Shown piece by piece: positions 5,935-58,643 of a stretch of 64,000 nt of DNA. The position numbers and the translations under genes are program-made. A model generated the notes under the pieces. The model was not told the origin of the DNA. It ran no database searches and saw only the letters and a program-made list of their open reading frames with translations. The DNA is taken from the NCBI GenBank assembly GCA_024137785.1, contig JAHRHZ010000127.1, positions 2,484,612 through 2,548,611 on the forward strand, given 5' to 3'. How positions within the stretch are numbered: the stretch's first letter is position 1; every line of letters begins with the position of its first letter. The DNA is from Ginglymostoma cirratum (Eukaryota).

Positions 5935-6057
5935 AAAGAGCTGGAAATCAGAAATCAAAATCAAAAACGGAAATTGATGGAAAAGCTCAGGCGGTCTGGT
6001 AATATCTGTGGAGAGAAATCAGAGTAAATGTTTTGTGTCGAGTGATCCTTCTTCAGC
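5935..6057 (-). mobile_element. Penelope-like terminal-repeat fragment
   Basis: Belongs to the GGAAAAGCTCAG..GGTCTGG..ATCTGTGGAGAGAAA repeat family seen at the ends of the GIY-YIG elements in this window. Confidence 0.65.
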
Positions 6058-6216
6058 AACATTGCATCCATACCATAATCTCGATAATTGCAATGTGAAT
6101 CAATGTCTGTATTGCTAAAGAAAAGCCTTCCATATGATCAGTAATGGCCCCGGAAATGACTTCATCTTAGTTTCAATTACTACCACTAATGTAACCGATG
6201 AAACCATCTGATTTTC

Positions 6217-6244
6217 TCCCTGGAGAAAGAAATCAAGGATAAAT
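6217..6244 (+). promoter_or_regulatory. putative core promoter of GPCR gene 1: O/E(EBF)-like site plus ATAAAT box
   Basis: TCCCTGGAGA (6217-6226), a 12-nt spacer, then ATAAAT (6239-6244). The spacing is the same in the other two paralogues. TAAT cores lie at 6142 and 6187. Confidence 0.6.
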
Positions 6245-6294: not shown

Positions 6295-8631
6295 ATGCAT
6301 TCATCACCCAATGGCCTGCCCTTTGCCATTTACTATCCCCTCCTTGCAGTTATTGGTATTGCAGGTAAGCGACTGTAATAAGATTTCATTATGGTAGTCA
6401 TAGTTTATCTGCATCACTTTTCTCATTTTCCCATAATGACTCTCCATGGCATTGATGTTACTTCCACCCTTTAACGGGATCTCTTGTCCAAGTCAATGGG
6501 AAAAGCATTTTCTCTTCTAACTAACAAGATTTTTACTCTTTTTTCAGGGTCATTTATTTCCTTTTATACCGATATGATATCTCCATTTTCGCTCTCCTTG
6601 CTTTAACTGACATAATTGCTTTCATGTCCAATGTATGTGCCAAACTTAAATGGTTACGTATCTCTCTTTGGTGGACGTAGATTACGCACATTCCCACTCT
6701 AATTTATTCTTAACTCTTCATTCTCATGACCAGTGTCGTTTCATTTCCTTAATTCTCTACTTTCACACTTACTTCTGGCATTCTATCCTTTCTTTTTTCT
6801 GCCGGGAAAGTAATGTCATCTAGTATCACGGTATAAATGTAATTCTAATGTTTTATTGATGCTGTCACTTTGGGTGCATAATGGTGTAAATATAGTTCGA
6901 CTGTATTATTGACAACGTCAACATTACTGCACTCTTAACGTAGATAAAGTTTGTTCCTGAGACAGTTATTGCATCAATACAGTTTTTTCCCCCTGAGTGC
7001 AAGCAGTTTCTTATGCTGAATGTTAAAAGTATTAAATCAACGTATATTTAGCTTATATATTTTGATTAGTCATGACCTCGGTTTATCAGGCTATCAAAAG
7101 GACTACACCGCATGTATTTCTTTGGTCCTCAAGGCCTGTCATGATGCTTTAACTCAAAACACTGTGGCACAAAAAGTGAGAATGCAGTCAACCAAATTAT
7201 ATTAATAATGTTGTACAGACTATTTGCTTCACTCACTGCCTTTCAGCATTTTTGCCATAAATACAGTTGTTTCCATATTACTCTCAAGCAGGATATTTTA
7301 CGTGGTCAAATTTTCAAATAATTGTACATGATTTATGGGATCTTTTCACTTACAGTACGGTTATACCGTGCATTGGTGTTTCTATTTGATACTTCCTGCT
7401 TTTCACCACTTGGGTGATCAACTTCAGTCGCTCATCCTATCTTAGATTTTCCAGATAATGTAATTGTTCTTGCTTTCCCAATACTCCACATTGGTAAACA
7501 GAACCTAAGTGTTTTGATAGTCCTCTGTGGCATGAGAAAATGGTGTATTTGAGGAAGTATCGTTCTATAATGGGACAGAAGGTTTATCGAAAGCAATTGC
7601 TGAGTCTGACTTCTCATAAAACTAATGCCCGATATGTTAACCTTTCAAATTTTTTTTTTTAAATTTCCCTGTCTCTCAGTCATATATTCATTATGTTTGT
7701 ATACAAAGCAGCTAATTCAGCAGTAATCGTGATTCTAACCAGAAGAAAATGTGGTCTCTCCAAATGTGTCATATACTACTTGATATCAATGGCAGTTACA
7801 GATCTTCACGTTATGATATTTGCTGTGATACTAAACCGGATTGGACGTATATATCTTCCATTCAGCTTCCTCTCCATTACTCCTATCTGTCGTCTTAGTT
7901 TTGTGGCAATATATGGAGTCAGAGATTGCTCTGTCTGGGTAACAGTTGCTTTCACCTTTGATCGCTCCCTGTCTGTAACTACTCAGAAGCTGAAAACAAA
8001 ATTTTGCTCCAAGAAAACTGCAGCTGTGGCAATAGGAACCATTTGTGTTCTGAGCTGTATTGTAAATATTCCCTGGTATTTTGCATATGAACCTTCCTTT
8101 ATCGTTGACAATATACCCTGGTTTTGTCAAAGTAAGTCAATATTTTATACGTCACCATTATGGGTCTTATATGATTGGATTCTTATTATTTTAACTCCTT
8201 GTCTTCCATTCATTCTGATTTTGCTGCTCAATGCACTGACCGTCAGACACATCCTAGTGGCAAATATAGCACGTAGGCGACTCTGGGCGCAAGAAAAAGG
8301 AGATAATTGGAGTGACACAGAAATAGAGAAACGGAAGAAATCTATTGTTTTGCTATTTACTATTTCAGGCAGTTTCATTCTGTTATATTCTGTATTCTTT
8401 ATTACAATTTTCTATGTCCGAATTACAAATGCTACTTATTCTCCTGGTTCAAATTTCAGTAACGCTTCATTTATTCTGGATGAAAGTGGAACTATGCTCC
8501 AGTTATTGAGTTCTTGTATCAATCCGTTTATTTATGCAGGGACCCAAAGAAAATTTAGGGAAGAGTTAAAGAATGGTGTTAAATATCTACTGAGTCTAAT
8601 TGTAAGATCATCTAATAAATCAAAACAATAA
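6295..8631 (+). CDS. GPR139/GPR142-like class A GPCR, paralogue 1 (exon 1 6295-6364, exon 2 7712-8631; 329 aa, intact)
   Basis: Exon 1 encodes MHSSPNGLPFAIYYPLLAVIGIA and ends at donor G|GTAAGC. A phase-1 acceptor CAG|CT joins it in frame to the 7693 ORF. The protein is 7TM with YLISMAVTD, SVWVTVAFTFDRS, LLNALT and MLQLLSSCINPFIY (NPxxY). Confidence 0.9.
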
Positions 8632-32604: not shown

Positions 32605-33160
32605 GAGATAAAAGGTACTGCAGATGCTGGAGAATCCGAGATAACAAGTTGCGGGGCTGGATGAACACAGCAGGCCAAGCAGCATCATAGGAGCAGGAAN
32701 NNNNNNNNNNNNNNNNNNNNNNNNNNNNNNNNNNNNNNNNNNNNNNNNNNNNNNNNNNNNNNNNNNNNNNNNNNNNNNNNNNNNNNNNNNNNNNNNNNNN
32801 NNNNNNNNNNNNNNNNNNNNNNNNNNNNNNNNNNNNNNNNNNNNNNNNNNNNNNNNNNNNNNNNNNNNNNNNNNNNNNNNNNNNNNNNNNNNNNNNNNNN
32901 NNNNNNNNNNNNNNNNNNNNNNNNNNNNNNNNNNNNNNNNNNNNNNNNNNNNNNNNNNNNNNNNNNNNNNNNNNNNNNNNNNNNNNNNNNNNNNNNNNNN
33001 NNNNNNNNNNNNNNNNNNNNNNNNNNNNNNNNNNNNNNNNNNNNNNNNNNNNNNNNNNNNNNNNNNNNNNNNNNNNNNNNNNNNNNNNNNNNNNNNNNNT
33101 TCCTGCTCCTATGATGCTGCTTGGCCTGCTGTGTTCATCCAGCCCCACAACTTGTTATCT
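32605..33160. mobile_element. Penelope-like terminal repeats in inverted orientation flanking an assembly gap
   Basis: 32639-32699 is the near-perfect reverse complement of 33100-33160. Confidence 0.8.
32700..33099. other. assembly gap (400 N)
   Basis: Run of N. Confidence 1.
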
Positions 33161-36911: not shown

Positions 36912-37917
36912 GAGATAGTAGGAACTGCAGAATCTGAGATGACAAGGTGTAGATCTGTATGAACACAGCAGGCCAAGCAGCATCAGAGGAGCAGGAAAGC
37001 TGACGTTTCGGGCCTACACCCTTCTTCAGAAATGAGGGAGGGGAAGGGGACTCTGAAATAAATAGGGAGAGAGGGGGAGGCGGATTAAAGATGGATAAAG
37101 GAGAAGACGGGTGGAGAGGAGACAGACAGGTCAGAGAGATGGGGGTGGACCCAGTAAAGGTGAGCGTAGGTGGGGAGGTAGGAAGGGGATAGGTCATTCA
37201 AGGGAGGATGGACAGGTCGAGGGGGCGGGATGAGGTTAGTAGGTAGGAGATGGGGGTGGGACTTGAGGTGGGAGAGGGGAGAGGAAGGACAGTTTAGGGA
37301 GGCGGGGACAAGCTGGGCTGGTTTTGGGATGCGGTTGGGGGAGGGGAGATTTTGAAGCTTGTGAAGTCCACAATGGTACCATTGGGCTGCAGGGTTCCCA
37401 AGCGAAATATGAGGTGCTGTTACTGCAACCTTCAGGTGGCATCGTTGTGGCACTGCAGGAGGCCCAGGATGGACATGTCGTCTAAGGAATGGGACGGGGA
37501 GTTAAAATGGTTCGCGACTGGGAGGTGCAGTTGCTTAGTGCGAACCGAGCGTAGGTGTTCTGCAAAGCGGTCCCCAAGCTTCCGCTTGGTTTCCCCGATG
37601 TAGAGGAGGCCACATCTGGAACAACGGATACAGTATACCACATTAGCAGGGGTGCAGGTGAACATCTGCTTGATGTGGAAAGTCTTCTTGGGGCCTGGGA
37701 TGGGAGTGAGTGGGGAGGTGTAAGGACAGGTGTAGCACTTCCTGCGGTTGCAGGGAAAAGTGCCGGGTGTGCTGCGGCTAGAGGGGAGTGTGAAGAGGAC
37801 CAGAGAGTCACAGAGAGAGTTGTCCCTCCGGAAAGCAGATAAGGGTGGGGAGGGAAAAATGTCTTTGGTGGTGGGGTCGGATTGCAGATGGCGGAAGTGT
37901 CGGAGGCTGATGCGTTG
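36912..37917 (-). mobile_element. Penelope-like retroelement 3' portion with GIY-YIG endonuclease
   Basis: ORF 37432-37995 has the CNRRKCYTC linker, FTCTPANVVYCIRCSRCGLLYIGETKRKLGDRFAEH and PVANHFN, followed by the terminal repeat. Confidence 0.92.
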
Positions 37918-38214
37918 GAGTTTGAATTGAGTTGTACACATTGATAAGAAGTACATTGGATGGGAAGAATCAATTTCCATGAGCAGAGAGATCAATATTC
38001 AAGCTGCCAGGTCGAGAAAGATGTGCTTGTATTTTTATAGCGCCTTTCATCATCACCTGTTTACAAAATGCCTCACAACCAATAAAGTATCTTTGAAGTA
38101 AATCATTCATTGGCAAAGTGAATGTATAAATCAGGGCAGTACAACCAGATATCAAAGAAAATGTTTGAATTACTCACAACTGGCACTAGAGACACCAATG
38201 AGTTCAAATGTAAG

Positions 38215-41374: not shown

Positions 41375-42678
41375 CTGGTCATCCCACGCAGGGAAAACAC
41401 CCGCCCACCGCCGACGTCGCCCTACCCACCACTGATATCGCCCCTAACTCCACCCCGACAACCAGCTCCAACCCAGCCAACAGCTCCAAACCTAGTCCCA
41501 GCCCCAAGCCTTGCCGGTCTTCACCATCCCCCAGACCGCCCTCTCCAAAGGTCTCAACTTAATTCTCCTGCGCCCACACATCAATGAATTCCGTTCGCGT
41601 TAGGACGTCGAATACTTTTCCGCTGCCTTCAACTCTGTGCCTATTTCTTTAACCGCGATTCTAACCCACCCTGTACACACTCCTTCTCCCACCTCTAACA
41701 CACCCCATTCTCCTGGACACCACCCTCAGGCCTCCTACCCTCCCTCGATCTCTTCATTTCCAACTGCTGTCCTGACATCAATCCCCTAAACCTCTCCACC
41801 CTCACTCCAACCTCTCCACCACAGAACGTGGAGCCGTCCGCTCCCTCCACTACAACCCACGGATAAAGGAGGCTCGGTTGTGGTATGGCGCACTGACCTT
41901 TATATCGCCTAGGACAGGTGTCAACTCTCTGACACCTCCTCCTACCGTCCCCTTGAGCATGGCTCCAGCCCTGACCACTAAAACATCATTGCCCAGACCA
42001 TCCATAACTTCATCACCTCAGGAGAACTCCCACCCACAGCCTCTAACCTCATCCTTCTCCAACGCCGCATTGCCCGTTTCTATCTCCTTCCCAAATTTCA
42101 CAATCCTGACTGTCCGGGCGGACCCATTATCTCTGTCTGCTCCTGCCTCACTGAGCTTAGTTCCACTTACCTTGACTCCGTTTCCTACCCTCGTCTAGCA
42201 ACCCCCGACCGAGACACCACCCACGCCCTCCATCTCCTCCAAGTCTTCCAATTCCCTGTCCCTCATCTTCACTATGGACATCCAATCCCTGTACACTTGT
42301 ATCCCCCACACAGATAATCTAAAAGCCCTCTGCTTCTTCCTGTCCGGTAGGCCCAAACAGCCCCCCTCCACCGACACCCTCATCTGCTTAACCCAACTCG
42401 TCCTTACTCTCAACAACTTCTCCTTTAACTCCTCCCACTTCCTATAAACTAAGCGGATGCCAATGGCCTCCCCCTCAACCCCATGGGCCCAAGCTACGCC
42501 TGCCTCTTCGTAAGATACATGGAACAGCCCCACTTCCGCTGCTACACTGGCACTATCCCCCATCTCTTCCGCCGTTACATTGTTGACTGTATCGGTGCTG
42601 CCTTCTGCTCCCACGAGGAACTTGAATAGTTCATGAACTTTACTAATACCTTTCCCTCAACCTCACATTCACCTTGAG
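41375..42678 (+). mobile_element. Penelope-like retroelement, degenerate RT region
   Basis: Frameshifted RFYLLPKFHNPDCPGGPI, LIFTMDIQSLYTCIPH, LVLTLNNFSFNSSHF, GPSYACLF and FRRYIVD, all PLE RT motifs. Confidence 0.88.
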
Positions 42679-42770: not shown

Positions 42771-42810
42771 TAATTAATGGTCTCCCCAGGGACTGAAATC
42801 AGGTATAAAT
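42771..42810 (+). promoter_or_regulatory. putative core promoter of GPCR gene 2: homeodomain site, O/E(EBF) palindrome and TATA box
   Basis: TAATTAATGG (42771-42780), TCCCCAGGGA (42783-42792; canonical TCCCNNGGGA), a 12-nt spacer, then ATAAAT (42805-42810) within TATAAAT. Confidence 0.65.
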
Positions 42811-42868: not shown

Positions 42869-45800
42869 ATGCACGAAATACCAAAAGGTCTGGTGTTTGC
42901 CATTTACTATCCTGTCCTTGCTGTGATTGGAGTTCCAGGTAAATTATGGTAATTATAAACTACGTAAATCAATGGCGAAGTGCACGAGATCTCCTCGTTT
43001 TCAGGGAGAGACGCGTCACCGAGGTACAGATATCCGCCCTGTCATTAAAGGGAATATAGTTATTCTGTAACTGGTATGATGAGCTCCCTTCAACTGATAT
43101 AATTTTCATTCTTGTATTCTCTACCTTTCTGGAAAATTCAGCATTTTATCATCATGTTACTTTCCATTTACTGACAGAATCTTATGACATTCATGCGTTA
43201 TTTCTCGACATTAACATTATTATTTCGTCACTTTACTGACACACACTTTTATTAAATGATTAATTGGTACCTTTTAATAGTCGACTATCTTACTGCGATC
43301 ATAAACATTTAATGAATTTAATTGCGCTATTTCCTTTATTTACTGTGAGCACATAAAGCAAATAGAATTCTGTTTTGTCAATACTATTTTTACTGCAAGT
43401 GAATTGTCAGATTGTTATCAGTGTGTAAAATAATTTTATTGTGTCATTGACAATATATTTTGGGCAAATCCAGCTAGTGATAATGTTGTAAATGCAGTTC
43501 GATATGGCAATGACAATCCTTTGGTTGTATTTTCTATTTGCCATCTGAAAAGCAGTTCTTTTGTATTATTTTCGCTGTCTTTCTCGGTGATTTGCTGTGT
43601 CACTGTCAGAGGTAAGTATACTTTTATCCTGCAATTTACTTTCACTATGAGGGGATAATTCTGACAATTGAGTTATTGTTCCTGTCCTCTGGCGGTATTG
43701 AACAGTTCCTATCTGCCATTACTGATTGAGTTTCTTGAAGGGACATATTAATTATGAAGCAGTTTTGTGATGTACTGCCAATGTCAGAGTTCTCTTCCAT
43801 ATTCAAATACTTATGTTTCTCTGACTCTTAGAGCATTGTTAGAATTAGAATTAGATTTTATTGTCACGTTTGCTCAAGTACAGCCATGCAGGAGGATTGT
43901 GAAAAAGTTTACAATGTTGCCATTCACGGCGACATCTTAGGTACAAGGTATCGAGGTACAAAATCTCAGGTAAGGAGCAGAAAAAATACAATAAAGCAAA
44001 GTTAAAAGTGCAACATTAGCTATTGTCAGTATGAAGTAGTAAATAAGAAATAAAGTTTAAACTTCCAAATCACAGTCCTGGTTCAACCATGGGCCTGCAG
44101 TTGCTCAACGCTGGGCTTTCCCCATAAGGGCTGGTTCTCCGTCCCATGCTGAGCTGGATCTCTCGGGCCCCCTGCCGCTGCTCGCCATCTCACTGCCGAT
44201 CATTGTCCGTCTCCGGTCTCCCAGTCACTCCCATAATTCCAATGGCCACCAGAATTCTGCCCGAACACACCAATCACCTTGTGTCTGACCGGCAAACTCC
44301 CTGCTCTGGGCCTCCAGCCGCTCCCGTCGCCACCACTGCCTTCACGACTGAACTCCCTCCAGCAAGTAAGTAAAGAGAATAAAACTAAAATGGAAGAAAA
44401 CAAACTCAGAAAAGAAGAAAGAAAAGTGGTTGGAGCGGACAAGCTCTGAATTAGGAGCCCTACTCCAGTGTGTCTATTCTCACCTACTAACACTCATTAA
44501 TTCTGTCCCAATCAACTCCTCACCATTTGCTGCTGCAGGATCTAAATTGACAATTACTGAATATTCTAATTACTCGCGGCGGCAGGAAATATTTCAGACT
44601 GTTATATAGTCACTATTTTCTCCATGTTGAGTGAATCTGCAATCCTGTTGGCAATTAACATCTAATTTGAAAGATTTTATTTCAAACGTCCAATATGATA
44701 ACGTTGATATTTTTCTTGAAAGTGCAGTAAAGCACCATTAAAGTTTTGTGCTGTAACAGGCTCCTTCTTCGCACGAGATCCCATCATCTGTCAGTTCCCA
44801 TGGCTCAGACTGACTTTCCAGAAATCATGTCGCTGTTTGGTAAAAGGTATGAATCTAACATTGCAACTTTCCAAACATTTATTCTGTGAAGTTGGCGAGT
44901 CCATTCTGCTCTTGGTGGCGTCTTTTGACAATTGAAAGATTACTTTCCCAGCAGTTGAATGATTTAATCATCGAACTGAGTTAGGTTTGTCTCCTAGTGA
45001 TCTTTAATTCATCTCCCAGTTAGTTTCCAGATTTATTGGCAGTTTATGTGTTGCTTACTTCCTTGAATATTTTCCATAGAGCTTTGCTGATGTAAATACC
45101 TTCCTGTCTGTCCCTTATCCAATTAGTTGCATTGTTGCCACACTAAGTTGTTTGATTTTAATTTAAAGGACAATTATAAACCCTGAAGTCAATTGTGTCA
45201 CATTGAAAATAATATGCACAATTGCATCTCAAATTTTATATTTTCACACTTGATCCTGTCAAATAGTGAGTTACTTGAGATTAGATACAATACTTGCCCT
45301 AATCGCGAAATAAACTCTCTCTTACTCAATTATAGCTAACTTGGCAGTTGTTGTGATCCTGTCTCGAAGAAGATGTGGTCTTTCTGAAGGTATCACTTAT
45401 TACCTGGTGTCCATGGGGTGACAGACTTCCTCGTTATGGTAACGGCTGTAATGGTAAACCGGATTTCTGGTATTTATTTTCCATCCAGTTTTCTCTCAAC
45501 CACACCAGTATGCCGTTCTCGTGCTGCCTTAAATATGGCAGTCATTGACTGTTCTGCCTGGTTAACGGTGACTTTCACCTTTGATCGTTTTATTGCCATT
45601 TCCTGTCAGCAGCTGAAAATAAAGTATTGCACTGAGAAGATGGCATCGTGTGTTATAGGAATCGTAACCTCACTCTGTTGTATAAAAAACATCTTTATAT
45701 ATTTGCAACTAGAACATAGGTACATCATTAATAATATACCTTGGCTCTGTGTCATAAAATCAATATACTACACATCACCAGCATGGGCGGCATATGACTG

Positions 45801-46245
45801 GATTCGACCTATTTTAACTCCTTTTCTCCCATTCATTCTGATTTTACTGCTCAATGCCCTGACAGCTAGACACATTCTAGCGGCTAACAGAACCCGTCAG
45901 AAACTCCGGAACAAAGGCAATGGAGACAATAAAAGTGATCCAGAAGTGGAAAAACGAAGAAAATTGATTGTCTTGTTATTCGCCATCTCAGGCAGTTTCC
46001 TCCTTTTGTACTTGTTATTTTTTGTCAATATCCTTTACGTTCGAAGTACAAATCTTACTTATTCAGCAGGTTCCAATTTGTAAATTTCCACCTTGGTTAT
46101 AGAACAGAGCGGATATATGCTTCAGTTGTTGAGCTCATACATTAACCCATTTATTTATGCTGTGACCCAGAGCAAAATCAGACATGAGTTTTAAAATGGG
46201 GTGAAATATCCTCTCATCATAATCGTTAAACTTTATAAATTCTGA
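42869..46245 (+). pseudogene. GPR139/GPR142-like GPCR pseudogene, paralogue 2 (exon 1 42869-42938, exon 2 45336-46245)
   Basis: Exon 1 encodes MHEIPKGLVFAIYYPVLAVIGVP with donor G|GTAAAT; the acceptor is TAG|CT. A 1-bp deletion at ~45416 gives ATG GGG TGA, and there are in-frame TAA codons at 46081 and 46192. Confidence 0.9.
43839..44485 (-). mobile_element. non-autonomous non-LTR element (Rex1/L2-like tail) in the pseudogene intron
   Basis: Minus-strand 3' end GTGACAATAAA plus a (TTCTAA)n tail; GC-rich body. Confidence 0.45.
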
Positions 46246-47494: not shown

Positions 47495-49520
47495 TGCCAC
47501 TGGGTCCACAGCCTCCAACATCATCGTTCCCCAACCCTGTGCCACTCGCTTCTATCTCCTCCCCAAAATCCACAAACCTGACTGTCCCAGCCGACCCATT
47601 GTCTCTGCCTATTCCTGCTCCACTGGACCTATCTCCACTTACCTTGACTCTGGTCTTCCCTTTCCTTCCTCCTGGTCAAGAAACTCTCCACGTACATTTG
47701 AGACACCACCCACGCCCTCCACCTCCTCCCAAACTTCCAATTTCCTGACCCCAACATCTCATCTTCACTATGGACATCCAATCCCTGTACACTTGCATTC
47801 CCCACACGGATGGCCTAAGAGTCCTTCATTTCTCTCTCTCCCCCAGGCCCAAACAGCCCCCCTCCACCGACACCCTCATTTGCTTAACCGAACTCGTCCT
47901 TACCCTTAGCAACTCCTCCTTCAAATCCTCCCATTTCCTACAGACTAACCGGGTGGCCATGGGAATCCACATGGGCTCAGGGTATGCCCGCCTCTTCGTA
48001 GGATACGTGGAACAGTCCCTCTTCCACAGTTACACCAGCACTGTACCCACCTCTTCCTCTGCTACATCAATGGCTTTATTGGCGCTCCCTCATGCTCCCA
48101 CGAGGAGACTGAACAGTTCATCAACTTTACACGTGCTTTTCAACCGAACCTCAAGTTCACCTAGGCCATCTCTGGTATCTCTCTCTCCTTCCTGGACTTC
48201 TCTGTCTGTGTCTCTGGTGACCGCCTCAGAACTGACGTCTACTTCAAGCCCACTGACTCCCACAGCTACCGAGACTAAACTTGTTCTCTCCACTCTTCCT
48301 GCAAGAATGTGATGCCCTACTCCAAATTCCTCTGCCTCCGCCACGTCTGCTCCCAAGATGGGCTGTTCCACTCCCATAATCCCAGATGTCTTCTTATTTG
48401 AAGGACCAAAACATTCCCCCTTCAGTGTTAGAAAATGCTCTCGACGGTATTTCTTGCGTTTCCAGCGCGTCTGCCCTCACATCCCCTCCCCAACAAAGAC
48501 AAATGCAGAATCCCCCTTGTCATCTCATATCATCCCACAAGCACCCATATCCAATAAGTCATTCTCCGCCACTTCCGCCAACTGCAATCTGACCCCCAAA
48601 CCAAAGATATAGTTCGCTCCCCACCCCTTTCTGCCTTTCATAGGGACTGTTGTCTCCATGACTACCTCATCTGCTCCACACTCCCCACTTGACCCACCAC
48701 TTGCCTGCACCTTTCCCTGTAACTGCAGAAAGTGCTACACCTACCCCTACACCTCCCCACTCACATCCGTTCAAGGCACCAAACAACTTTCCATTTCAGA
48801 CATAGGTTCACCTGTACATCCATCAATGTGGTCTATTGCATCCACTGCACCTGATGTAGCCTCCTCCACACCCATATGGCCAAGCAGAGGCTCGGAGCCC
48901 ATTTTGCAGAGCACCTGTGTTGTGTTCATGACAAATGACAGCACCTTTCATTTGAGAACCATTTCAACACCCCCTCCCACTCACTGGGTGACATGTCCAT
49001 TCTGGGCCTTCTCCATTGTCACAATGACGCCACTCAGAAACTGGCAGAGCATCACCTCATATTCAACCTTGGTAGCCGACAGCCAAATGGCCTCAGTGTG
49101 GATTTTACCAGTTTCAAAATCTCCCCATCCCTGGCCTAATCACATGACCAACCCTTATCCCTGCCTCCTTGACCTGACACAACTTGTCCATCTTCTGATG
49201 AAGGGTTTAGGCCCGAAACGTCAAGTTTTCCTGCTCCTATGATGCTGCTTGACCTGCTGTGTTCATCCAGCCCCATGCTTGTTCTCTCCCACTTATCTGC
49301 CTGACCCATCGCACTGACAAATCCTTCACCACTCGCTACCTGCACTCACCTATCACCATCCCACCAACATTCCCAGTCCCACCCCCTCCTCTCTCTATTT
49401 ATTTCTCAGCTGTCTTCCCCCTCCCTCATTTCTGAAGAAGGGTCCCGACCCAAAACGTCACCTTTCCTGTTCCTCTGATGCTGCCTGGCCTGCTGTGTTC
49501 CTCCAGCTCTACACTGACTT
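47495..49520 (+). mobile_element. Penelope-like retroelement (RT, GIY-YIG EN and terminal repeats), frameshifted
   Basis: RFYLLPKIHKPDCPSRPIVS, MDIQSLYTCIPH, VAMGIHMGSGYARLFVG and FPCNCRKCYT; terminal repeats at 49194-49283 and 49430-49515. Confidence 0.92.
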
Positions 49521-55792: not shown

Positions 55793-55843
55793 TAATTACC
55801 GCCCCACCCCCCGTCCCCCCGGAGGCCGACACCATCGATAAAT
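55793..55843 (+). promoter_or_regulatory. putative core promoter of GPCR gene 3: homeodomain site, O/E-like site and ATAAAT box
   Basis: TAATTA (55793-55798), CCCCCGGAGG (55816-55825), a 12-nt spacer, then ATAAAT (55838-55843). Confidence 0.55.
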
Positions 55844-55893: not shown

Positions 55894-57659
55894 ATGCACG
55901 AAACACTAACTGGTCTGCTTTTTGCCGTTTACTATCCCCTCCTTGTATCCATCGGCGTTCCAGGTAAAGTTTTGGTCTAAATGAGTAAGTACTTTTACGA
56001 GTCATTGGCAAATTGAATTGTTTTTCCGACTTCACGACATATGCATCTGCATGTTCCAGGTATCCTTTGCCCCATTGAATGGAATTTTTTTCTTCTTCAG
56101 AGTTAATAGTATAATTACTTTAATTGAATAAATTATCTTATTTTACAAGTTCAGATTCAATTTTAAGCATATTCATTCACCATTTCAATATGCAGATCTC
56201 TACTATCTACTGACATATTATGATTTCTCTCTCATTTACATGCATATAGAATCATGTGAATCCAGTCGATTTTTTTAATACCGATAGACTCATCACCTGA
56301 AAGGATTTCATCCATATTACCACTAACCTTCCACAATGGAAATTATTTCCGTAGTTCTGATGACGATGTTCTTGCAGTTCTATTGTTTGTGTTGGTGGCA
56401 ATATCATTGTTGGTGACTTGCTGCAAAGATCTTATGGTGCAAAATTATTGTCATAATGAATTGAAACTGCTGTTGCACATATGTCGTTACACACCTGTCA
56501 CAGGGTTAGTGAGGTCGAGTTGTATTGTTATCACTGTTTCAACGTGTGAAATTATCATGGTGAATATGTGGATTTGTTGCGTTAATAACAATGACTGGGA
56601 CAGAATAATTTGCATTATTGATACATTACTAGTGAATATTGAACTGTTGAACGAATACTAATCAGTTCAATGAGTTGTTATTAATGCGTCATTATTATTT
56701 ACTGAAATGTTCTCTGATGTACAGGTAATTCAATAATTACTTTCTTTAAAGAATGATTAACGTTAATGCGTAGCTCACAGAGCAGTATCCGTTTTCTCAA
56801 TCTGGAGCCTTCACTGCTTTATACCTGTTCTCCACTTCCTCATACGTTGTTGTAGATTTTTCTAAGCTATTGACTGCTGGGTATGGGATTTGTTTCCAAT
56901 TCGAGTATCCAACGATGTTTCCCGCTGTTTCAATCTCGACGATTTTTCCCACATTGAGTAATTCCACACAACTAATTTATAAAGTTTATGAATCGAATTT
57001 CCACTTTCATCGAGAAGGCTTCTCTTTCATCGAGAAATCACTGTGCAGTTTGGAGAAACGACTGCATTTTCGGTAGTAATTTCTCGGTGATTGAGAGCTC
57101 ATTTTCTGGCAGTTCCAGTCGTTCAGTAATCATAAGCTGACGTTTCGGATTTGCTAATGTCTTAAACAAAATGCGCTTCACAAATTTGCCTAAATCTATT
57201 TAGCAAGACGCATCTCTCAATCGGTTGACATTTTTCAGTAAGTCCACAGCTGACTTTTCCGACTGTGATCAATTTTTAAATAATGTGATGGGAATGAGCC
57301 ATTCAAAGTGATATAATTGTGCTCATTCTAGATTCCATATTTACTGATGGCTGTTTTATTATTTGCTTATTTAATAATGTCTGCAATACTTTACTGTTAT
57401 AATATTTTAGGGTTGTTTCGATCGTGTCCTGTTCTCCAAAAGGTCACTGTCGAATCTATTTCATTAACATTTCATTGGCCTGCCTTGTTTTGAATCTAGA
57501 TCACTGTTAAATCTAATAAATAATTACTTCTTGAGTGGAAGTTTTCCTTTCAATTTAGGATTCAATCTAATACTTTATATTTCACAGGGGACCGTTTTAA
57601 AAGATTTATTTTGTTGGTTGTCAAAGATTTGATGTTTCAGCTGTGTTTTCTTTCTCCCC

Positions 57660-57692
<33 letters not shown>

Positions 57693-58643
57693 GCACGCAC
57701 AAAATCCCCCACACATGCACACACAGCTAACCTTGCAGTCATCATTATCCTGGCTCGAAGAAGGTGTGGCCTCTCTGGATGTATTACATGTTACCTCGTG
57801 TCTATGGCAGTTGCAGATCTCCTCGTCATGGTCGTGGTTGTAATATTAAATCGGATTGCTGGGATTTATTTCCCATCTAGTTTCCTTTCCATCACACCAA
57901 TTTGCAGTCTTCGTTCTGCCTTGAATTTTGCAGCAATTGACTGTTCTGTCTGGTTTACTGTCGCTTTCACCTTTGATCGATTTGTTGCCATTTGTTGTCA
58001 GAAGCTAAAAACAAAATACTGCACTGAGAAGATGGCACCACTGGTGATTGGAATTGTGTTTGGAGTATCATTCACCAGAAATATTTTCACGTATTTTGGT
58101 TATGAACCTACGCACATGATTAACAATGTGCCCTGGTACTGTGGCGTGAAAGATGTATACTATACTTCACCAGCATGGGCTGCATATGACTGGATTCGAA
58201 TCATTTCAATGCCTCTTCTCCCCTTCCTGTTGGTTTTAATACTCAATGCGCTGACAATTAGACACATTCTACTATCCAATAAGGCCCGCCGGAGATTCCA
58301 TACCCACAGAAATGGTGAGAAAGTGATTGACCCAGAGATGCAGAGGCGGAGAAAGTCCATTATTTTTCTCTTTACCATCTCTGGCAGTTTCGTTGTGTTA
58401 TATTTGTTATGTTTTATAACTGTGCCCTATGTCCGACTTGCCAAAGTGCGGTATTCTCCAGGTTCAGATTTCAGTAACTCCACATTTATTCTGCAACAAA
58501 GCTCATTTATGCTTCAGTTACTGAGTTCCTGTATCAATCCATTTATTTATGCTGGAACGCAGAGTAAAATCAGAGCTGAATTAAAGAAAGGTGTCAAATA
58601 TCCACTGAGAATATTTTTGAAAATATTTACATTTTCAAAATAG
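55894..58643 (+). CDS. GPR139/GPR142-like class A GPCR, paralogue 3 (exon 1 55894-55963, exon 2 57727-58643; 328 aa, intact)
   Basis: Exon 1 encodes MHETLTGLLFAVYYPLLVSIGVP with donor G|GTAAAG. The acceptor CAG|CT AAC is in frame with ORF 57798-58643, which has SVWFTVAFTFDRFVAICC and MLQLLSSCINPFIY. Confidence 0.9.
57646..57726 (+). repeat. (CT)n(CA)n compound microsatellite at a splice acceptor
   Basis: CTCTCTCTCTCTCACACACACACACACACACGCACGCAC...ACACAG. Confidence 0.9.

Follow-up and report, generated by a model that had tools for sequence, protein, structure and literature searches.

Introduction

In the mouse, odorant receptor (OR) enhancers are enriched, relative to OR promoters, for a composite of adjacent Lhx2 and Ebf sites (Monahan et al.), and in a fusion-protein assay this composite is sensitive to the insertion of 2 bp (PMC5608512). 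It is described as depleted from mouse OR promoters (PMC11643329), and the J element also uses it (PMC7804114). O/E and homeodomain sites abound in mouse OR promoters, a subset of which has a loosely placed TATA box (PMC3247239, PMC5318403), and V1R promoters also carry O/E-like sites (PMC3247230). A fixed spacer between the O/E site and the TATA box is not described for mouse OR promoters in the available parts of PMC3247239 and PMC5318403.

In the catshark, the olfactory receptor family is the V2R family, the nose does not express ORs and olfactory neurons are almost all microvillous (PMC10116579, PMC11979771). Published surveys count only the four known olfactory receptor families and portray sharks as animals with few receptors, in which discrimination was traded for sensitivity (PMC10116579). 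The recruitment of a non-canonical class A GPCR to olfaction has a precedent in adorb/A2c of fishes and frogs (PMC8462279); adorb/A2c is a rarely duplicated adenosine receptor with shown expression, whereas the shark family described below is known from sequence. Low-copy GPR139/142 relatives of bony fishes were named GPR210A/B in one survey (PMC6504862).

Here we analyze a 64-kb stretch of the Ginglymostoma cirratum genome (64,000 nt, hereafter the window). The 40 bases at 42771-42810 are one copy of a conserved module with fixed spacing that precedes the genes of a large shark family of GPR139-related GPCRs. Counted from the O/E-like site (position 0), the layout of the module is, in part of the promoters, an E-box near -65 and a forkhead-like TRTTTRY near -50, then TAATTR at -8 (mainly in two clades), TCNCWGGAG at 0, a spacer of 12 or 13 nt, ATAAAT, a short leader and the ATG.

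Results

Three receptor genes in the window

The window holds three genes of this family on the forward strand, in each of which a phase-1 intron separates a 70-nt coding exon 1 from a long exon 2. The spliced frames of gene 1 (exon 1 at 6295-6364, exon 2 at 7712-8631) and gene 3 (55894-55963 and 57727-58643) are open and encode 329 and 328 amino acids, respectively. Gene 2 (exon 1 at 42869-42938 with a phase-1 GT donor, exon 2 at 45336-46245) carries the best O/E-like site and is broken: exon 2 is interrupted by a frameshift near 45415 and by two in-frame stops (46081-46083 and 46192-46194). The window genes match Pfam 7tm_1 only, and a search of the ESM Atlas returned 7tm_1 clusters only. 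We ruled out that they are OR genes: there is no 7tm_4 match, a coding intron is present and the three OR matches of the genome lie elsewhere.

A strong-looking splice acceptor in gene 1 (7678-7679) lies 32 nt upstream of the in-frame acceptor (7710-7711), and its use would shift the frame. The window also contains a 400-N run (32700-33099), either a gap in the assembly or sequence that was withheld, and retroelement fragments, which we take to be Penelope-like, with a weak GIY-YIG match at 37432-37980 on the reverse strand and related pieces at 42034-42674 and 47506-49242. Two same-species contig sets, possibly RNA (80% likeness), align only to a repeat (5940-6058) and to a small part of gene 1 exon 2, and have no bearing on expression either way.

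The original prediction placed an O/E motif before each gene, followed after exactly 12 nt by ATAAAT at about 55-65 nt from the ATG, and the sequence bears this out at every coordinate. The O/E-like 10-mers are TCCCTGGAGA (6217-6226), TCCCCAGGGA (42783-42792) and CCCCCGGAGG (55816-55825); ATAAAT follows each after 12 nt (6239-6244, 42805-42810 and 55838-55843) and lies 56, 64 and 56 nt before the ATG in genes 1, 2 and 3, respectively. The two strands of the window hold 78 ATAAAT sites in all, of which these three fit TCCCNNGGGA best at the 12-nt spacing, with 1, 0 and 3 mismatches against at least 4 at all others. The predicted site of gene 2 is thus an exact match, its ATAAAT is part of TATAAAT, and its spacer (42793-42804) shows weak conservation within the clade, with the consensus CTGACATCA. 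CCCCCGGAGG of gene 3 is a weak O/E match, and the module of gene 1 (6209-6244) has the top family-matrix score within the window.

TAAT cores had also been claimed just upstream of all three sites. This holds for gene 2, where TAATTA (42771) overlaps TAATGG (42775-42780; the two together span 42771-42780) and TAATGG occupies the slot, conserved in the family, that begins 8 nt before the 10-mer and ends 2 nt short of it. In the other two genes the cores are present but lie away from this slot. In gene 1 the slot contains a degenerate TGATTT (6209) and the cores at 6142 and 6187 lie outside it, while in gene 3 (module at 55793-55843) the slot contains CCCCCG and TAATTA (55793) is displaced 15 nt farther upstream, behind a C-run.

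A large GPR139-related family of cartilaginous fishes

A strict exon-1 pattern gave 153 matches against 0 controls in the 4.36-Gb genome, and 127 scored sequences of 1,330 genome candidates all match the family at E below 1e-83; both 153 and 127 are lower bounds. The same genome has three OR and three V1R matches. A protein search returned 1,724 matches, and 119 of the 120 listed come from sharks and rays, mostly under the name 'probable G-protein coupled receptor 139'. Judged by sequence, these are two-exon class A GPCRs of cartilaginous fishes that carry the label 'probable GPR139'.

The best PDB match of the family is human GPR139, at a distance (E 3e-12). We ruled out orthology with GPR139: the genome's own GPR139 is on another contig, is 22-27% identical to the family and, in a quick tree, does not group within the family clade. 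The two share the position of a phase-1 intron before the TM1 Asn. With GPR139 as the best-known relative and with this common intron position (compared with GPR139 alone), the family appears to belong to the GPR139/142-related group that includes GPR210A/B (PMC6504862), from which it differs in its low identity to GPR139 and in that its closest outside lineage is a low-copy gene of amphibians and sturgeon. The closest outside row in the quick tree is a salamander protein (SH-aLRT 95, long branch), and a search with this protein gave 25 matches: 20 amphibian, 1 sturgeon and 4 shark or skate. This well-conserved GPR139-like lineage occurs in frogs, salamanders, a caecilian and sturgeon, with no amniote in the 25 matches. 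A second low-copy GPR139-like lineage occurs in bony fishes, the coelacanth, amphibians, turtles and the catshark, with no bird or mammal among the best 120 of 130 matches.

Across 1,275 intact pairs from the window's clade (the MH clade), dN/dS is ~0.19 at a dS of ~1.4, which indicates that the proteins are under purifying selection. In 64 of the 74 intact proteins (those left after thinning), predicted pocket positions, with numbering assigned from sequence motifs, are the most variable transmembrane positions (entropy of 2.14 bits, against 1.64 for other outer and 0.87 for inner transmembrane positions). The family is therefore large and clustered, shows birth and death in the form of pseudogenes and has a diversified predicted pocket, features that are equally true of immune and somatosensory receptor families. 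Our literature search, whose coverage excludes most subscription journals, returned no paper describing the family or its promoter.

An O/E-like site at a fixed distance from the TATA box

The original prediction had proposed motif and spacing enrichment across the family. A first set of 93 upstream regions was picked by coding pattern only, from the 100 matches listed of the 153; a second set came from 60 further regions found through exon-2 matches, 48 of which had an exon 1 with enough upstream DNA. Unseeded EM on the 93 promoters ranked cTAATTatcTCcCTgGAG.cTgacat first among the motifs that lie away from the start codon. We trained a matrix on 27 first-set MH-clade promoters, excluding the window genes. 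In a held-out test, 25 of 26 new MH-clade promoters and 8 of 22 others scored above the 95th percentile of 143 distal windows; a few of the new promoters belong to close paralogues of the training genes.

When 140 promoters were collapsed to 83 non-redundant clusters, 68 passed the O/E plus TATA score (45/47 from the MH clade and 23/36 from the rest). The spacer is 12 nt in 54 of these 68; when it was left free between 3 and 30 nt, 50 promoters had a spacer of 12 nt and 9 had one of 13 nt. The distance from TATA box to ATG varies from 42 to 98 nt in the same promoters, and small indels in the leader blurred the motif when the alignment was anchored on the coding sequence. Genome-wide, a pattern of TAAT core, O/E core and TATA box gave 14 matches against 1 reversed control. 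A family exon 1 follows 12 of these matches, and 10 of the 12 were absent from the set from which the pattern came. The composite pattern without the TATA box gave 141 matches against 62 controls, with none in the V2R clusters of contig C17 among the 100 of 141 listed.

About half of the 93 first-set promoters fall in a single clade that was amplified recently and has a TCACTGGAGG site, a spacer of 13 nt and an often degraded TATA box. Its members have a long leader with a variable number of short tandem repeats (L016-L089; contigs C6, C7, C21, C101, C102, C109, C110, C122 and C127). In one promoter (L054, G000:C108:5441741-5451740) the O/E-spacer-TATA module is tandemly duplicated.

The fit of the conserved site to an EBF site depends on the standard used. 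Against TCCCYNGRGA, the V$NOLF core as printed in PMC3247239, 19/45 MH-clade and 6/23 other promoters have at most one mismatch, and 39/45 and 18/23 have at most two; a TCCCYNGRGA-like site occurs in 26/47 windows against 3.0 in distal DNA. At most one mismatch to TCCCNNGGGA is found in only 6/45 and 4/23 promoters, and a TCYC-NN-GRGA dyad with at most one mismatch in 28/45. The site always has a single orientation, with invariant C2, C4, G7 and G9, a preferred A8 (34/45) and A at position 3 in 10/23 non-MH promoters. It is best described as O/E (EBF)-like: it fits the O/E core and departs from the canonical EBF palindrome, with TCACTGGAGG in the large second clade.

Homeodomain, forkhead-like and E-box sites

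TAATTR with at most one mismatch lies at exactly -8, that is, 2 nt before the O/E-like site, in 30/45 MH-clade promoters, against 0-4 at neighboring offsets. The slot is filled in only 5/23 non-MH representatives, and a 47-member second clade, collapsed to one row, often carries TAATTR too. By these sequence counts the homeodomain part of the module is clade-restricted, mainly to two clades. The O/E core occupies positions 9-18 of the composite search pattern of PMC11643329, which is the register seen in the shark promoters. The first 17 positions of that published pattern match exactly in 4/45 promoters and with at most one mismatch in 25/45, but the pattern is too loose to show enrichment (21/47 against 20.2 after shuffling). 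The spacing of this pair of sites matches the stereotyped Lhx2/Ebf register, and the paired homeodomain and O/E grammar of olfactory regulation, which had been proposed for all three window genes, finds support in this register and is narrowed to part of the family by its clade restriction.

Two further elements were overlooked in the original prediction, a forkhead-like site near -50 and an E-box near -65. Sense-strand TRTTTRY occurs at -75 to -30 in 12/45 MH-clade promoters (background 1.8) and in 10/23 others (background 0.5), and a CAGCTG E-box occurs at -85 to -10 in 13/68 (background 1.6). Strict copies of either element are absent from the three promoters of the window. Forkhead counts from both strands were set aside because the pattern also matches the TATA box on the reverse strand.

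Conservation of the module

With 30 promoters anchored on the TATA box only, five O/E core columns have a pairwise identity of 0.62-0.75, against 0.46 at four-fold sites and ~0.3 upstream. With 46 promoters, identity in the core columns is 0.51-0.60, while four-fold sites have a median of 0.42 and reach 0.58 at the 90th percentile, and the margin in the larger set is therefore modest. The stronger evidence against ancestry alone comes from the elements that were not used for anchoring (TAATTR, the forkhead-like site and the E-box), which peak at fixed offsets. Scores of 5 broken genes are no lower than those of 74 intact genes (9.9-19.5 against a mean of 15.2; small sample), which would fit recent breakage and lends no support to function.

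By these comparisons the module is specific to the family, fixed in position and better conserved than its flanks. Two points of the original prediction are affected. Its concern that the motif might be no more conserved than flanking DNA is answered in favor of the motif, and its description of the surrounding sequence as largely diverged holds apart from the weak consensus that the spacer retains. The alternative that it offered, shared ancestry of three paralogues, is insufficient alone because the module has these properties family-wide.

Control promoters in the same genome

Of 37 regions upstream of ANF-receptor exons, 27 contained exon 1, and 5 taste- or calcium-receptor-like genes were dropped by eye, leaving 22 V2R-type promoters. 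In the 200 bp before the ATG, O/E-like sites occur in 13/22 (distal 2.5; shuffled mean 3.2, maximum 7) and TAATTR in 18/22 (distal 4.2; shuffled 6.8, maximum 12); by independent cluster the counts are 9/14 and 10/14. In these regions the O/E-TATA spacer is not fixed, and the family matrix gives them low scores. Gamma-crystallin promoters (13 from 20 fetched regions, in only 4 clusters) have O/E-like sites in 2/13, TAATTR in 2/13 and both in 0/13. Since the V2R-type set is enriched and the crystallin set is not, the pairing is common to the shark's true olfactory genes and is unseen in one unrelated TATA-box family. The family resembles shark V2R/OlfC genes in having both site classes upstream and differs from them in that V2Rs are class C receptors with scattered sites and demonstrated olfactory expression in the catshark (PMC10116579, PMC11979771).

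The V2R-type upstream regions also share clade-specific blocks that include O/E-like and TAATTR sites (L171-L203), and no account of shark V2R promoters was found in the available parts of the shark olfaction literature. The ~20 gamma-crystallin genes are clustered (G000:C145, near 19.8-20.1 Mb), and their promoters have a common TTTTGCTGA block (L233-L252), presumably a Maf half-site. Within 1.5 kb upstream, several OR and V1R genes of the genome have a splice-acceptor-like sequence just before the coding region.

Discussion

The module is likely the core promoter of the shark family genes. It resembles the Greek Island composite in that a TAAT-type hexamer directly precedes a degenerate O/E site in the same register (PMC5608512, PMC11643329). 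It differs in that the shark copy, a candidate by sequence, is clade-restricted, usually has a pyrimidine rather than a purine at position 7 and lies ~30 nt before the TATA box of each gene. The last feature rules out that the module is a Greek Island enhancer, which would be intergenic within an OR cluster. With mouse OR and V1R proximal promoters it shares O/E-like and homeodomain sites near the gene start, AT-rich sequence and membership of a large clustered GPCR family. The mouse promoters mostly lack a TATA box or have it loosely placed, and their genes have 5' non-coding exons (PMC3247239, PMC5318403, PMC3247230), whereas the shark family has a nearly universal TATA box, an O/E-TATA distance fixed at 12-13 nt, an extra forkhead-like site and an intron in the coding region. 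The module is a new variant of the homeodomain and O/E grammar, for which an olfactory role is plausible.

We lean tentatively toward reading the module as an EBF/homeodomain promoter that is active in olfactory neurons, a reading that may well prove wrong, the tissue being assigned by resemblance only. The original proposal of an olfactory-type promoter gains support from the V2R-type genes, which have both site classes where the crystallin genes do not, and gains none from the fixed O/E-TATA spacer, which is absent from the V2R-type regions and from the available accounts of mouse OR promoters. We also counted in its favor the purifying selection on the proteins, the diversity of the predicted pocket, and the size of the family and its pseudogenes, set against three OR and three V1R matches. 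An EBF dimer and a homeodomain factor of the Lhx2/Emx2 type would occupy neighboring sites at about one helical turn from TBP, and forkhead and bHLH factors would assist the pair. Transcription would start ~25-30 nt after the TATA box and yield a transcript with a short leader. Each gene would bear its own composite site and would not rely only on distant enhancers, and the module of gene 2 would be a leftover on a recently broken gene. The receptors would be sensors, in microvillous neurons, for various small molecules or peptides carried by water.

There are four alternatives. The same promoter may be active in EBF-positive sensory or neural cells of other kinds (neurons of the trigeminal or spinal ganglia, lateral line or brain, or solitary chemosensory cells in skin and gill), and the family would then be a shark counterpart of the MRGPR-like somatosensory repertoire. 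We regard this as somewhat unlikely. Motifs indicate classes of factor but do not name a tissue; co-expression of EBF with TAAT-binding factors is widespread among neurons, and many other cell types make use of EBF, forkhead and E-box factors. MAS1 and its relatives form a gene family of bony vertebrates (PMC8455134, a whale shark paper), and the catshark expresses ORs and several V2R-like genes in places other than the nose (PMC11979771). However, the exact homeodomain-to-O/E register matches the olfactory enhancer composite, and both site classes are common to the V2R-type genes.

The forkhead-like and E-box enrichments also bear on whether the promoter is lymphoid and the family an expanded set of immune-cell receptors, which is unlikely. 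The E2A-EBF1-Foxo1 network is the B-cell programme, and a combination of E-box (E2A), forkhead (Foxo1) and EBF1 sites fits B cells; moreover, outside the two clades the forkhead-like and O/E-like sites are steadier than the homeodomain site. On the other hand, we know of no B-cell feature that resembles the fixed TAATTR-O/E composite of the two large clades. One supplement file of a nurse-shark lymphoid paper (PMC13007054) contains no term for the family, a weak point in a file of 5,752 characters.

It is improbable, though in keeping with the four invariant positions, the single orientation and the A at position 3 of many non-MH promoters, that the 9-mer is bound by a non-EBF factor such as a zinc-finger protein. 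In that case the olfactory likeness would be partly coincidental, and gut or endocrine sensing, as for GPR142, would be one option. A CNTCTGG motif that is not an O/E site is reported in mouse V1R and OR promoters (PMC3247230). The dyad symmetry in 28/45 promoters and the spacing to TAATTR, which equals that of the known EBF composite, argue for an EBF site. Finally, some similarity left in spacer and leader and the modest margin over four-fold sites would be expected if the module had no function beyond its TATA box and reflected residual ancestry or gene conversion, which is very improbable given a dS of ~1.0-1.4 between paralogues, a motif and 12-13 nt spacer that persist across clades at ~45-50% protein identity despite a variable leader, and unanchored elements that peak at fixed offsets.

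Returning to the olfactory promoter, terms for GPR139 were not found in the supplements of PMC8455134 (12 of 24 files), PMC11589584 (readable files), PMC13007054, PMC13188829 and PMC12768270, which may list genes by ID only. The available part of the catshark organ atlas (PMC11979771) has no GPCR among its top 50 brain and olfactory genes, and because V2Rs are absent from it too, this list says nothing about expression of the family.

It is possible, if doubtful, that cartilaginous fishes have a fifth olfactory receptor family, whose members, GPR139-related class A GPCRs, number in the hundreds, exceed ORs, V1Rs and V2Rs in number and each have an Lhx2/Ebf-type composite one helical turn from the TATA box. 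If true, the module would be the promoter-borne version of an element found in the Greek Island enhancers of mammals, and the notion of shark olfaction as based on a small repertoire of V2Rs only would be overturned. A family of at least 153 copies under purifying selection, with a diverse predicted pocket and a candidate olfactory-type promoter, makes the conclusion that sharks have few receptors directly testable with existing catshark organ RNA-seq. The module also bears on the origin of the Lhx2/Ebf composite, and even if the tissue is not the nose, it provides a compact, genome-specific handle on a very large and unstudied receptor family.
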